64,000 nucleotides of DNA from Planctomycetota bacterium. Its GTDB lineage: Bacteria > Planctomycetota > UBA8742 > UBA2392. Of this stretch, positions 14,486 through 38,527 are shown one piece after another. Below the pieces are notes generated by a model. It was not told the DNA's origin. It made no database searches and worked only from the letters and a program-made list of their open reading frames with translations. Each line of letters opens with the position of its first letter. Within the stretch, counting starts at the first letter, position 1. The DNA is taken from assembly GCA_020848275.1 (NCBI GenBank), contig JADLAK010000077.1, positions 7,606 through 71,605 of the forward strand, read 5' to 3'. The position numbers and the translations under genes are program-made.

Positions 14486-14965
14486 TTACTTGGCGGCTTT
14501 TTCGCGTTCGGCAGGCTTGGCGCCGTCCTTTTTTGGCTCTTCCTTCGGCGTCTCCGCAGGCGTGCCGATTTCCTTTCCTTCCGGCCGCTCCTTGATGCCG
14601 CCCCAAGTGTAGCCCGCGCCTTTGATTACTTTCTTGGCGTCCTCTTCCTTCAGTTCCTTCTTTTGCTCGACCGTCACCTTCAGCGTCTTCTTGTCGAGGT
14701 CGCCCTCGACCTCGATGATGCCCTCGATGGCCTTGAGTTTCTCGCGCAGCACCTTCACGCAATTGTCGCAGCCCATGTCGGGCACGCTAAGTTCGTATGT
14801 TTTGCCCTTGGGACGCGCTACCTCGTGCGCCGCGACGACATCCTTGTCTTTACCGGTCTTGCGCGTCTCGGCGCTGGGCGGCTTGCCGCACTTGTCGCAG
14901 GCAAACGCCAGCGGCGCCGCAAGCACCGCCAAGGCAAAGAGCACAACCAGAGTCGAAATGCGCAT
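14486..14965 (-). CDS. Exported heavy-metal-associated (HMA) domain protein, canonical Cys form
   Basis: Signal peptide, N-terminal CDKC, YELSVPDMGCDNCVKVLREKLKAIEGI (MxCxxC) and a Lys/Glu-rich tail. Confidence 0.85.
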   Translation of the reverse strand: MRISTLVVLFALAVLAAPLAFACDKCGKPPSAETRKTGKDKDVVAAHEVARPKGKTYELSVPDMGCDNCVKVLREKLKAIEGIIEVEGDLDKKTLKVTVEQKKELKEEDAKKVIKGAGYTWGGIKERPEGKEIGTPAETPKEEPKKDGAKPAEREKAAK

Positions 14966-34657: not shown

Positions 34658-35023
34658 TTAATAGTCGACAGGCACTTCCTCGAACTTGGTCACGCCATGG
34701 CCGCTGTCCTTCAGGGCTTTCTCGACGGCTTCCTGGGTCATCTCACTGCGGCGCTTCATTGTGATAGTCGCAATTTTGCCGTCGATGGTCACGTCGGACA
34801 CGCCCGCGATGGTCTTGAGCAGGTCCTCGACTTTCTTGATCGTGTCGGCGTCTTTCATCTCGCCGGAAATCTCGATGCTGTAAACGCGCGACGGCTGCGG
34901 GCGGCAACAGGCGCAGATCAGGCCGGTCTGGGCTTCACCGCCGGTGACGGCCGGGAACGCCGAGAGGCTCTGGGTTCCAAGAATCGCAAAAGCAAACATT
35001 GCGGCGAAGAAGGTGTTGCGCAT
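34658..35023 (-). CDS. Exported HMA-fold protein lacking the canonical CxxC
   Basis: Signal peptide. YSIEISGEMKDADTIKKVEDLLKTIAGVSDV aligns to the HMA fold with MxCxxC replaced by MKDADT. A CACC motif precedes the domain. Confidence 0.7.
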   Translation of the reverse strand: MRNTFFAAMFAFAILGTQSLSAFPAVTGGEAQTGLICACCRPQPSRVYSIEISGEMKDADTIKKVEDLLKTIAGVSDVTIDGKIATITMKRRSEMTQEAVEKALKDSGHGVTKFEEVPVDY

Positions 35024-35312
35024 GACAATCCTTTCTTTGAGCATTTTCAGCTTGTTGTAGCGGATCTTGCTTGCGGCGAGCGTCGCATCTCTGCGTCAGC
35101 CTCACTTTGCGTGGCTTTCAGCCACGCGGTCGTTCGGCTTTCTTGACCTGATCGCTCGGCGCGGCGCAATATCGCGCTCCATCAATGCTTCAAAAGCTCT
35201 TTTCGGGGCGGGCTTTTCGGCGCTCTTGTCACGCTGGACTCGCGTGGCCCCTACTAGTTTGGCGGCAAAATTACCGCTGCAAACTAGACGCGCGTTGCGC
35301 CCGCCGGTTCCG

Positions 35313-35346
35313 AAAAAACGAAGCGGGACGGCGTTAGCCGTCCCGC
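35313..35346 (-). terminator. Rho-independent terminator after the Cys-rich HMA gene
   Basis: 10-bp stem GCGGGACGGC/GCCGTCCCGC. An A-run on the + strand gives a U-tract on the - strand. Confidence 0.8.
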
Positions 35347-35366: not shown

Positions 35367-36005
35367 TTAGTTGCTGGCCTTCTTGCCGCAGCCTTCGCAC
35401 TCCTTCTTCGGAGTTTCAGCGGAGGCTTCCTTCTTGGGCTCTTCCTTCTTTTCCTCGACCTTGACGACCTTGTCGCAGGAAGTCACGCCGAAGTCGGTAC
35501 CCTTGAGGGCCGTTTCGATGGCCGCCTTGTCGATGGTCTTGCCTTCGTTCATGGTGATGGTGACGGTGCCTTTTTCGACGTCCACGGCAACGTTGGCGAC
35601 GCCGTCGATCTTCTTGATCTTGGCCGCAACGCTCTTTCCGCAGCCGGCGCAGCACATCTCGGTGACAACAACGGTGTAGACGTCACCGGTCTTGGTTTCA
35701 GCTTTCACTTCCTTCTTGGCTTCGCAGCCCTTGCAGCCTGCACAATTCTTGCTGCCGCAGCCCTCACAGCCGCCAACGGTGCCTGCTTCCTTGGCGCCGG
35801 CGTCCTTGGTCTTGGTGCAGGTGCCGCCGCCACAACCGCCGCAGCCGCCACCACCGCACCCGCCGTCGTCCGCCTTGGTCGCGGCCTTCTTTTCGGTGCT
35901 TGCGCCGCAAGCGCGCTTACAGCCGCAACTGCCGGCAAACGCATCGCTGCCCATGAGCGCGGCGCCGGCAAACATCAGGAGAAACACAAAGAAAGTTGAG
36001 CGCAT
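35367..36005 (-). CDS. Exported HMA-domain protein with Cys/Gly-rich metallothionein-like N-terminal region
   Basis: Signal peptide, multiple CxC/CxxC clusters, YTVVVTEMCCAGCGKSVAAKIKKIDGVANV and C-terminal CEGC. Confidence 0.85.
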   Translation of the reverse strand: MRSTFFVFLLMFAGAALMGSDAFAGSCGCKRACGASTEKKAATKADDGGCGGGGCGGCGGGTCTKTKDAGAKEAGTVGGCEGCGSKNCAGCKGCEAKKEVKAETKTGDVYTVVVTEMCCAGCGKSVAAKIKKIDGVANVAVDVEKGTVTITMNEGKTIDKAAIETALKGTDFGVTSCDKVVKVEEKKEEPKKEASAETPKKECEGCGKKASN

Positions 36006-36188
36006 CTGCTATTCCCTTTTGGGTGGTTGAATGCTGGTTAGAACGAAAACCTTATCACGGTATGTATCTTTAGTGGAGCAGCTCGGTGCAAGATTACCGA
36101 CTATTTGCGGCGATGAAATCGACCCTGCAACCATCTATCAGATAAGCACTTACAGATGATTAGGTCTGCCTCAGCCTATCCCCGTTGT

Positions 36189-36629
36189 TCAACCCTTTGG
36201 TGGAGGTTGAGCAGCCTCTGGTTTTTCCTTTGTGGGCTCTTTCTTGGCCTCTTCCTTGACCTGCTCAAAGGACGTGACGCTGAGGCCGTCTTTGGAGTTC
36301 TTCACGGCTGTCTCTACGACCTCTTTGGTCAATGTCTTTCCGGGCTTGGTGACGATCACCGCGGTTTTGTCTTTCAATGTGACAACTACGCTGTTCACGC
36401 CATCCAGGCTGGTAAGGGCGGTCTTGGCCGCCTTGACTCACATACCTCAGGACATCCCGTCAATGATGACCTTGTAGGTTGTTGGCGCCGCCGCACCATC
36501 CGCTTTGGCAGTTTCAGGTTTGTCGGTCGCCTTTGGGTCACTTGCGGCGTCGCCGGCAAAAGCGACGTTAGCCCCGAGGAGAGCGATACCTAACGCGAGG
36601 ATAAAGATGAACTTCAGAAACGATGCCAT
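36189..36629 (-). CDS. Exported HMA-domain putative selenoprotein with two in-frame TGA (GMS-U-GM-U), 146 aa
   Basis: ORF-track fragments 36447-36629 and 36189-36398 are in one frame. Joined they read YKVIIDGMS*GM*VKAAKTALTSLDGVNSVVV, an HMA domain with TGA (36447-36449, 36438-36440) at both Cys positions. GGAGA RBS, signal peptide. Confidence 0.88.
36396..36434 (-). promoter_or_regulatory. Candidate bacterial SECIS hairpin pair
   Basis: mRNA after the UGAs: AAGGCGG-CCAAGA-CCGCC(C)UU, then CA-GCC-UGGAU-GGC-(G)UG. Confidence 0.55.
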
Positions 36630-36667
36630 GAGTTTTCTCCAACCGGTCTAACGTTAGAAACGAGGGG

Positions 36668-37114
36668 CTACTTCACGCCGTGTGACGCCTTCAGCGCCGC
36701 CCAGTCCCCATTGCGATCTTCCTTGAGGCTGACCAGTCCGTATCCGAAGTCGTCTTCAATACTTTTCTTGAGTGACTCGTACTCAAGCTTCGCCTTTTCG
36801 TTACCGTGCAAATAGATGTTGAATTCCTCGATGACGGTGAAAGCGTCGGTTATCCCTTCCAGGGATAGCAGGGCGTCAACGACGCCCGTGGCTCAGCCGC
36901 CTCAGTCCATGCCGGTGATGCCCAGGATATAGATGACATCCTTGCTTGTCGGCTTAGGCGGTTTGGGCAGGGGTTCGGGCGTCGGCTCGGGCTCGGGTTT
37001 TTCGACGCCGCCGCCTCCTTTGCGGAACTCGATGGGCGTCAGGTCTTCAACGGTGATCTGGCAGCCCGCGATCAGGAACGCGATTGAAGCCAGCAGCGAC
37101 AAACCGTGCTTCAT
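36668..37114 (-). CDS. HMA-domain lipoprotein, putative selenoprotein with two in-frame TGA (GMD-U-GG-U), 148 aa
   Basis: Lipobox LIAGC and Pro-rich linker, then IYILGITGMD*GG*ATGVVDALLSLEGITDA. TGA at 36902-36904 and 36893-36895. The frame stays open to TAG 36668-36670. AAGGA RBS. Confidence 0.88.
36851..36887 (-). promoter_or_regulatory. Candidate bacterial SECIS hairpin pair
   Basis: Two perfect 7-bp stems right after the UGAs: GGGCGUC-GUU-GACGCCC and UAUCCCU-GGA-AGGGAUA. Confidence 0.65.
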
Positions 37115-37126
37115 GGCCGGATTCCT

Positions 37127-38002
37127 TTAAAAGACGTACGAGAACATAAGCATGGCTTCGCCCTCGTGCACGAACTGCTTGCCGAAGTGATAGTGGTAAA
37201 GCGGCAGCATCACGCCGAATTTCACCTCGAAATCGTTGTTGATGTTCATCTGGAAGCCAATGGCCGCCTCAACTTCATAAAAGCCGCTGTTTTCATCGCG
37301 ATCGCCGTCCATCTCGCCCTGGGCGCGCGCTTCAAAATCCATTTCAACGAGCAGGATCATGTCGAAGTCGCGGTAGTTCTTGATCTCCCACAGACGATGG
37401 CCATAGGCCATGTGGGTCTTGAACCCTGGCCCCTCGCCGGAATCGGAGCGGCGCGTCGACCCATAACCTGCCAGGTCTATCCAGAAATAGTGGCGTGTAG
37501 TGCTGGTTTGCGCGGTCAGGCCTCCCATGAACGTAAAGGTTTCGTCGCCAAGGGAAGGGCCGTCGACGCGTTTTTTTGCGGTAGGCAGTTCGGCCCGGAC
37601 AAACCAGCCCGCCTGCGAACTTCCGCCGGGGTATGGATGGTAAAGGAAGCGGTACTTGGCGCTGATCTCGGCGTTGCCCGGCCCGTAGTAACTTTCGCGA
37701 TCGTCTTTGGACCACTCAGATACGTAAGTGACAGGAAACTCAGCCTTGAGCGACCAGTCGCGCGAAATGCCCCAAGTAAAACCCGGCATGACCATGTGCT
37801 CAAATCGCCGCAGGTCACGCGGGTTTTCGTCGGGATTGTCGCCGCTGAAAAAGCGATAGGAGTACTCGAACATCTGCTCGACTTCGACCTCGAAGCCGTT
37901 GGTCCAGATCGTGCGCGGCGTCAGCCCAAACATGGTCTCGTGCGCATACGCGCCGCCCGCAAAGATCGCCAGCAAAAGCCCGATAATGCTCAGTTGTTTC
38001 AC
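37127..38002 (-). CDS. Putative outer-membrane beta-barrel ('transporter'-like) protein
   Basis: GTG start with AAGG RBS, signal peptide (AYA|HETMF), alternating amphipathic beta-strand pattern and C-terminal Phe (LMFSYVF). Confidence 0.7.
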   Translation of the reverse strand: MKQLSIIGLLLAIFAGGAYAHETMFGLTPRTIWTNGFEVEVEQMFEYSYRFFSGDNPDENPRDLRRFEHMVMPGFTWGISRDWSLKAEFPVTYVSEWSKDDRESYYGPGNAEISAKYRFLYHPYPGGSSQAGWFVRAELPTAKKRVDGPSLGDETFTFMGGLTAQTSTTRHYFWIDLAGYGSTRRSDSGEGPGFKTHMAYGHRLWEIKNYRDFDMILLVEMDFEARAQGEMDGDRDENSGFYEVEAAIGFQMNINNDFEVKFGVMLPLYHYHFGKQFVHEGEAMLMFSYVF

Positions 38003-38016
38003 GCGGCACCTTTTCC

Positions 38017-38478
38017 TTACTTCGACCTTGCACCGACCGTCTTGCGCACTCCCTTGGGGTGATCCTCGCAACACGACTTGCCCTCAAGGTCCTGAAGGAT
38101 ATTGCAGTCTTTGACGCTCGCCGCGCCGCCGGGGCAGTGCTCCACCAGTTCCTTCAAGTGATTGCGCATCTGGTGCAGCAGCGCAATCTTGCCCTCGATC
38201 TCGGCCAGCTTGCGTGCGGCCACTTCACTGATGTCGCCGCAGGTCGCGATGTTCGAGTCGCGCAGGAAAAGCAGTTCGTGGATTTCCTTGAGTGTGAAGC
38301 CGACGTCCTTGGAGCGCTGGATGAACCGCAGGCGCTCGGCGTCATGTTCGCTGTACAGGCGGTGGCCGCCCGAGGTGCGCTCGGGCTTGGGCAGCAAGCC
38401 TTCGCGCTCGTAGAAACGAACGGTTTCAATGTGGACTCCCGCGGCGGTGGCAAGCTTGCTGACGGTCATGGCGTTCAT
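38017..38478 (-). CDS. merR: MerR-family metal-responsive regulator (three-Cys MerR/ZntR/CadR type)
   Basis: HTH GVHIETVRFYEREGLL. Cys80, Cys115 and Cys125 match the MerR Cys82/117/126 pattern. Extra CCEDH tail. Confidence 0.88.
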   Translation of the reverse strand: MNAMTVSKLATAAGVHIETVRFYEREGLLPKPERTSGGHRLYSEHDAERLRFIQRSKDVGFTLKEIHELLFLRDSNIATCGDISEVAARKLAEIEGKIALLHQMRNHLKELVEHCPGGAASVKDCNILQDLEGKSCCEDHPKGVRKTVGARSK

Positions 38479-38496: not shown

Positions 38497-38527
38497 AGTC
38501 TATCTCCGTAGCTTACTACGGGTTCAA
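38497..38527 (-). promoter_or_regulatory. mer-type promoter/operator: -35 TTGAAC, 19-bp spacer containing dyad CCGTAG-TAAG-CTACGG, -10 TAGACT
   Basis: The minus strand reads TTGAAC CCGTAGTAAGCTACGGAGA TAGACT. Classical PmerT is TTGACT CCGTACATGAGTACGGAAG TAAGGT (same spacer length and dyad). Confidence 0.88.

Follow-up and report, generated by a model that had tools for sequence, protein, structure and literature searches.

An exported HMA-domain protein of Planctomycetota with probable selenocysteine at both metal-ligand positions

The operon and its fourth gene

Analysis of a 64,000-nucleotide stretch of a Planctomycetota genome (the window; C77:7606-71605 of an assembly of 111 contigs that is 88% complete) revealed a minus-strand operon that reads, in order, MerR-like regulator, putative outer-membrane barrel, UxxU lipoprotein, the gene studied here (the UxxU HMA gene, in fourth place) and Cys-rich HMA protein, where U stands for selenocysteine (Sec). 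The features, with positions counted from the start of the window, are as follows.

38497–38527, minus strand: MerR-type promoter (TTGAAC, 19-nt spacer, TAGACT) with the dyad CCGTAG-N4-CTACGG, read from the sequence
38017–38478, minus strand: MerR-family regulator with three Cys (C80, C115, C125), from Pfam and NCBIfam profiles
37127–38002, minus strand: putative outer-membrane beta-barrel, from a weak, sub-threshold Pfam OMP_b-brl match and conservation beside merR and P0002 in genus g7
36668–37114, minus strand: upstream HMA-like lipoprotein, GMD-U-GG-U, with UGAs at 36902–36904 and 36893–36895, from sequence and orthologs
About 36871–36887 and about 36852–36867, minus strand: twin hairpins of the lipoprotein gene, from folding and family alignment
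36637–36640, minus strand: ribosome binding site GGAG, 7 nt 5' of the ATG, read from the sequence
36192–36629, minus strand: coding sequence of the exported UxxU HMA protein, 146 aa, from the single frame, Pfam HMA and a structure model
36555–36629, minus strand: Sec-type signal peptide, aa 1–25, MASFLKFIFILALGIALLGANVAFA followed by G, from the sequence and a model helix at 4–18
36258–36482, minus strand: HMA domain, ferredoxin-like beta-alpha-beta-beta-alpha-beta, aa 50–124, from Pfam, phmmer, model and Foldseek
36447–36449, minus strand: UGA1, codon 61, first metal-ligand position (Cys1 of GMxCxxC), TGA in all Sec-type homologs
36438–36440, minus strand: UGA2, codon 64, second metal-ligand position, TGA or TGY in the homolog column
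36414–36434, minus strand: hairpin H1 (AAGGCGG-CCAAGA-CCGCCCUU), candidate SECIS for UGA1, from folding and family alignment
36396–36411, minus strand: hairpin H2 (CAGCC-UGGAU-GGC-G-UG), candidate SECIS for UGA2, from folding, with loop G at position 2
36192–36257, minus strand: disordered Lys/Glu/Pro-rich C-terminal tail, aa 125–146, from low pLDDT and similar tails in orthologs
36189–36191, minus strand: a third TGA, the stop codon of the UxxU HMA gene
35367–36005, minus strand: downstream exported Cys-rich HMA protein, from Pfam and the ORF track
35323–35346, minus strand: terminator-like hairpin 3' of the Cys-rich HMA gene, from the sequence

Translation of the minus strand from 36629 to 36192 gave a single frame of 146 codons, of which codons 61 and 64 are TGA. 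An earlier note on this DNA had placed two ORF-track fragments (36447–36629 and 36189–36398) in one frame; they do share it, and with TGA read as U they yield one product of 146 aa with the motif GMS-U-GM-U, the join reading ...IDGMS-U-GM-U-VKAAKTALTSLDGV.... The cleavable-type signal peptide and Lys/Glu tail described in the same note were also found, cleavage probably falling between AFA and G (…LLGANVAFA/GD), and the other UxxU protein that it reported in the window is the upstream paralog, which carries GMD-U-GG-U as described. The protein thus runs from signal peptide through a 25-residue linker and the HMA domain to the Lys/Glu/Pro tail, and its orthologs likewise carry signal peptides or lipoboxes.

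The HMA domain was recognized by Pfam (PF00403) at 39.3 bits against a gathering score of 24.8 (E 8.5e-10), in an alignment covering residues 54–108 and thus both TGAs. A phmmer comparison with the PDB aligned GMS-U-GM-U column for column with the GMTCxxC of ATP7A/B, CopZ and MerP, with Sec standing in place of both Cys of GMxCxxC. Modelling with AlphaFold2 from nine family sequences gave a beta-alpha-beta-beta-alpha-beta core with a pLDDT of about 90 at residues 50–124 (E51–57, H62–73, E78–84, E89–94, H102–110 and E117–124) and low confidence in the signal peptide, linker and tail. In this model U61 belongs to the loop between beta1 and alpha1, with U64 in the opening turn of alpha1, and the best PDB fold matches found by Foldseek were ATP7A MBD3, MerP (1osd, 1afi) and CopZ/Atx1, with TM values (target) of 0.69–0.82 for MerP and ATP7A.

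The regulator at the head of the operon scored 131.8 bits with the MerR model TIGR02051 (cut-off 150.85) and 128.8 bits with ZntR (cut-off 143), below both cut-offs, and the operator presumably resembles merO of Tn21/Tn501. The barrel had no NCBIfam match; its mature N-terminus reads HETMF. The upstream lipoprotein belongs to a type, GMD-U-G[GQ]-U, that is confined to two families of one order. In each of the 18 genomes with this gene type it contains two TGAs; a Cys form was not found in any of them, and the type looks Sec-obligate as judged from these sequences. Its loci, besides the one in the window (36668–37114, minus strand), are L020, L023–L033, L055–L070 and L086–L102. A gap of 183 nt separates the UxxU HMA gene from the Cys-rich HMA gene, and the order regulator, barrel, lipoprotein, HMA gene recurs in another genus (g7). 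Past the operon terminator lies a further HMA-like gene (34658–35044, minus strand; weak Pfam HMA, 18 bits) that has no CxxC, bears CACC near its N-terminus and is kept after the operon in genus g7, and 21 kb from the operon an exported Cys-type HMA protein (14486–14965, minus strand; Pfam HMA, 45 bits) shows a weak PepSY_2-like N-terminal match. Within the 88% complete assembly, no match to MerT was found and none to MerA above its cut-off, the best scoring 309 bits against 454.

Homologs and downstream hairpins

Orthologs that keep both TGAs, at 35–45% protein identity, were found in 12 of the family's 23 representative species; the sister family within the order has them as well. Sec spacing among these orthologs is UxxU or UxxxU, and other homologs hold U..C or C..C in the same columns; the arrangement C..U occurred in none of 37 sequences. 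Other parts of the phylum commonly have exported HMA proteins of the U-x3-C form, which can contain as many as three domains. The relatives come from uncultured Planctomycetota MAGs, and seven named loci were obtained in a second search that used an ortholog alignment; a search of genome contigs for related loci with the barrel protein as query returned nothing. Of the few two-TGA matches outside the two families (f1 and f2), the one that was inspected, in another Planctomycetota family (G330), proved to be U-x3-C followed by a TGA stop. With the full protein as query, a collection of 5.8 billion predicted proteins gave no match at E <= 1e-5, as expected, since predicted proteins end at TGA.

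Several related loci extend this range of arrangements. Tandem HMA selenoproteins were seen at L022:1000-1820 (plus strand; two domains and four Sec, GMSUGVSU and GMTUGVTU), L017 (minus strand; two domains and three Sec) and L075:1400-2300 (plus strand; three domains, each U-x3-C), and at all three loci every domain has its own downstream hairpin. In some species of the family (L059:1630, plus strand; L070, minus strand) the lipoprotein gene is followed on its 3' side by a U-xx-C HMA gene, GMTUENC or GMTUANC, with one long SECIS-like hairpin that begins 11 nt past the UGA. Other species have CxxC at that position, giving a natural series of C..C, U..C and U..U.

Synonymous positions downstream of the UGAs are constrained. 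Among 13 non-redundant P0001-type genes, the type to which the gene in the window belongs, synonymous-codon identity was 0.78–0.83 in windows covering about 16 codons past UGA2, compared to about 0.4–0.6 elsewhere, and the paralogous lipoprotein family showed the same peak. Two adjacent hairpins occupy this region in the UxxU HMA gene, H1 with a GGCGG/CCGCC core at −9.1 kcal/mol and H2 at −5.0 kcal/mol. As a SECIS we counted a stem-loop directly downstream whose apical loop contains a G and lies about 16–37 nt from the UGA. Our only yardstick within the genome was the SECIS of selD, which has 9 bp, a GUC/GGUCC loop and a distance of 30 nt from its UGA; its loop GGUCC resembles many H2 loops. 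Rfam searches of 36100–37200 at permissive thresholds gave no SECIS and no other credible match. In this copy the hairpins are not exceptional relative to synonymous recodings (fractions 0.35 and 0.33 for H1 and H2), and the 65-nt fold has z = −1.4, so the evidence for SECIS function comes from the family.

That evidence concerns both hairpins. Across aligned P0001-type genes, pairing of H1 reaches 85% and three pairs are compensatory, and in the 15 sequences of the paralogous family H1 is 99% and H2 84% paired, with compensatory changes from GC to AU in H1 and among UA/AU and GC/AU/UA in H2. In all 15 of these paralogous genes both hairpins are more stable than 90–100% of synonymous recodings; in many P0001-type orthologs they beat nearly all recodings, and in several, including the gene in the window, the excess is modest. 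The distribution of the hairpins follows that of the UGAs: H2 forms in 14 of 15 U..U sequences compared to one or two of ten U..C sequences, and its mean energy is −9.1 kcal/mol in U..U, −2.8 in U..C and −4.0 in C..C genes, a link between H2 and UGA2 that is partly confounded by phylogeny, as U..U and U..C genes come largely from different families. Mean H1 energy is strong in both U..U (−8.0) and U..C (−8.8) genes, and in U..C genes only H1 is more stable than expected from synonymous recodings.

Distances point the same way. The H1 loop starts 22–24 nt from the U of UGA1 and the H2 loop 34 nt from the U of UGA2, bracketing the distance in the selD SECIS of this genome, and the crossed distances are only 15 nt from H1 to UGA2 and 43 nt from H2 to UGA1. 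Because of hairpin conservation, the distribution between U..U and U..C genes, the excess over recodings and the loop distances, we infer one hairpin per UGA: both would function as SECIS elements, H1 most likely serving UGA1 and H2 serving UGA2.

A rather unlikely competitor is that one SECIS serves for reading both UGAs as Sec; this element would be H2 or a long composite hairpin, and the remaining hairpin would have a different role or none. A 2026 study of UXXU hydrogenases, which left UXXU decoding unresolved, favoured a single SECIS and found tRNA(ReC) enriched (PMC13582414). Consistent with one element at our locus, every H2 loop carries the SECIS-typical G, which is missing from the first two positions of the H1 loop in several orthologs, and the 65-nt minimum-energy fold of the UxxU HMA gene is one long hairpin that includes UGA2. 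Against it, the single-Sec U-x3-C homologs possess H1 alone, at the same place and beyond synonymous expectation, and lack H2; the UxxU lipoprotein family shows compensatory changes in both hairpins, each of which beats synonymous recodings in 15 of 15 genes; and the fit of H1 to UGA1 (24 nt) and of H2 to UGA2 (34 nt) around the 30 nt of selD is lost when the pairs are exchanged (15 and 43 nt).

We tentatively put forward the reading with two elements as part of a larger proposal: a natural tandem SECIS may exist here, with two adjacent hairpins, one per UGA (9–12 nt apart), in which H2 was gained together with the second UGA, alongside a selenium-dependent sequestration of Hg or other soft metals in the envelope without MerA or MerT. 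If correct, the tandem SECIS would answer the bacterial UXXU decoding question that the 2026 study left open (PMC13582414). Of all the findings, the twin hairpins most deserve experimental study, and the matched natural U..U, U..C and C..C variants with one or two hairpins constitute a comparative test of how near-adjacent Sec codons are decoded.

Function and the residues at the two UGAs

We propose that the protein, exported through the Sec pathway and mature in the periplasm, would bind a soft, thiophilic metal ion by means of a bis-selenolate site. Because of the regulator and its operator, the ion would most likely be Hg(II), with Cd(II), Cu(I) and Ag(I) as alternatives. The product of the operon's first gene, the three-Cys MerR-type regulator, would induce expression, and the UxxU HMA protein would act with the barrel, the lipoprotein and the Cys-rich HMA protein to sequester the metal or hand it over within the cell envelope. 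Such sequestration would replace the classical MerT/MerA route of import and reduction, which is apparently missing from the genome. Most likely, the protein would use two selenolates to bind a soft mono- or divalent metal with high affinity in the envelope, within an inducible chain of sequestration or hand-over; both the identity of the metal and the direction of transfer are inferred. A periplasmic bis-selenolate site is predicted to have a much higher affinity for Hg(II) and similar ions than the dithiolate of MerP has, suggesting a defence against mercury or soft metals that works by sequestration and depends on selenium supply.

A role in redox chemistry or selenium handling in place of metal binding, as a diselenide-forming oxidoreductase or a periplasmic selenium carrier, is improbable in our assessment. 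A UxxU pair in the oxidising periplasm would readily form a diselenide, and most bacterial selenoproteins are redox enzymes (PMC13188914). The fold, however, is HMA and not thioredoxin-like, and the other genes of the operon encode further HMA proteins and, at its head, a three-Cys MerR-like sensor with a presumably mer-like operator.

The genome encodes a complete Sec pathway. There is one tRNA-Sec with anticodon UCA (70.8 bits), an 8/5-type acceptor/T arrangement, a long variable arm and discriminator G73, indicating Ser/Sec identity; selA (536 bits) lies 0.8 kb from it, and selB (306 bits) and selD (386 bits) are present, all four scoring above curated cut-offs. selD (genome G000, C98:15986-16903, minus strand) is itself a selenoprotein gene, with a single in-frame TGA at the canonical GAG-U-GCK site. 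Among long high-GC3 ORFs, 548 of 1884 (about 29%) end in TGA, as does the UxxU HMA gene itself, ruling out genome-wide reassignment of this codon. TGA is nevertheless the least used stop of the long ORFs (TAG 701, TAA 635, TGA 548) despite 62% G+C, which is unusual among high-GC bacteria.

The earlier note had offered SECIS-dependent recoding of UGA to Cys as an alternative and had named the absence of a UCA tRNA or SelB as grounds for giving up its proposal. Both are present, and the only UCA tRNA is the G73 tRNA-Sec beside selA, so the recoding alternative is disfavoured. On that alternative, a tRNA-Cys of the tRNA(ReC)/SelC* type, dependent on SECIS and SelB, would turn the product into an ordinary CxxC HMA protein. 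The enrichment of tRNA(ReC) in UXXU-hydrogenase genomes (PMC13582414) lends it some plausibility, and in an assembly that is 88% complete a missing ReC tRNA is no proof. We nonetheless regard it as very improbable, since the single tRNA-Cys(GCA) is ordinary (75 nt), selD is intact, and neither this genome nor 22 relatives of the family yielded a second Sec-like tRNA with Cys identity (U73, anticodon UCA or GCA). Across these 23 genomes RF01852 detected one tRNA-Sec each, its other matches reaching only 45–51 bits, and the six of these that were inspected with ARAGORN were tRNA-Ser(UGA) or tRNA-Arg. Three odd, long tRNA candidates from ARAGORN in this genome (C44, unreadable anticodon; C37, Thr(UGU), 91 nt; C44, Ile(UAU), 93 nt) were poorly paired false positives, none with a UCA or GCA anticodon.

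That an assembly error or pseudogenisation is at work, two nonsense mutations having inactivated an HMA gene expressed at most as fragments, is scarcely credible: gene callers do split the gene and the collection of 5.8 billion proteins holds no full-length relative, but TGA stands at the same two codons in orthologs of 12 species at 35–45% identity with frame and fold kept on both sides, UxxU likewise occurs in a second gene family of the operon in 18 of 18 carrier genomes, and ribosome binding site, signal peptide and operon spacing are intact. Taken from the sequences, this pattern of TGA conservation excludes both sequencing error and pseudogenisation, in agreement with the earlier note, which had judged pseudogenisation very unlikely; retention of both TGAs in diverged orthologs from 12 of 23 species bears that judgement out. 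Its central claim, one exported HMA protein with two UGA-encoded Sec residues, has gained support from the Sec machinery, TGA conservation, and the hairpins with their synonymous constraint. Both metal-holding Cys positions are very probably Sec. We consider it likely overall that the locus is a functional gene for an exported single-domain HMA protein of the MerP/CopZ fold, in which both GMxCxxC ligands would be Sec, inserted at two UGAs 9 nt apart by the canonical SelA/SelB/SelD/tRNA-Sec pathway.

Gene callers and protein databases miss this gene, rendering it as a 60-aa and a 69-aa piece. As a result, a whole family of exported Planctomycetota selenoproteins is absent from annotation, from selenoproteome counts and from surveys of metal resistance.

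Comparison with known systems

Selenoproteins of this general kind have been described before. A Sec-containing 'MerP' was reported among the GOS selenoproteins (PMC2398784), and UxxU HMA selenoproteins are already catalogued as NCBIfam NF041115 'UxxU_metal_bind', a metal-binding (seleno)protein that appears in reviews as 'putative mercuric reductase, UxxU, 2 Sec', with the Olavius symbiont study as source. NF041115 was the best-scoring NCBIfam model for our protein and shares with it the HMA fold and UxxU in place of both metal-binding Cys. In contrast to members of that model, the protein scores 43.8 bits against an equivalog cut-off of 95 (orthologs, 29.8–57.5), extends the 74-residue domain of the model by a signal peptide, a linker of 25 aa and a Lys/Glu tail, and has orthologs that vary between UxxU and UxxxU, some of them tandem two-domain proteins. 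Eight relatives also fell below every curated cut-off, including those of MerP, CopZ and MerT_CopZ_Se.

MerP (TIGR02052), among the best fold matches, has in common with the protein a single exported HMA domain and a putative MerR-type regulator with a presumably mer-like operator. It differs in having Cys where the protein has Sec, and the protein reaches only 29.5 bits with its model (cut-off 92.55). Unlike in classical mer operons, no MerT or MerA partner was detected, the partners here being an outer-membrane barrel and other HMA proteins. CopZ/Atx1 and the domains of P1B-ATPases, which gave the best PDB sequence matches, share the fold and the GMxCxxC loop, but they are cytoplasmic Cys proteins that feed ATPases, whereas the UxxU HMA protein is exported, has a Sec pair and is encoded in an operon without an ATPase.

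The UXXU Group 4 [NiFeSe] hydrogenases pose the same decoding question, with two UGAs 9 nt apart at a metal site (PMC13582414). They are unrelated proteins for which a single SECIS is favoured and tRNA(ReC) is enriched, in contrast to the two conserved hairpins and the lack of a ReC tRNA here. The uncurated U-x3-C HMA selenoproteins that are widespread in other Planctomycetota families, known here from genomic homologs, share the domain, the export signal, Sec at the first position and H1 (GGUC-CGUGN-GACC). They differ in carrying a single Sec, in lacking H2 and in often being built of two or three tandem domains. By these comparisons, the UxxU HMA protein is expected to work like the catalogued UxxU HMA selenoproteins while standing outside the curated families: the UxxU HMA family of Planctomycetota is unannotated, and the kind of selenoprotein that it represents is one that has been predicted before.
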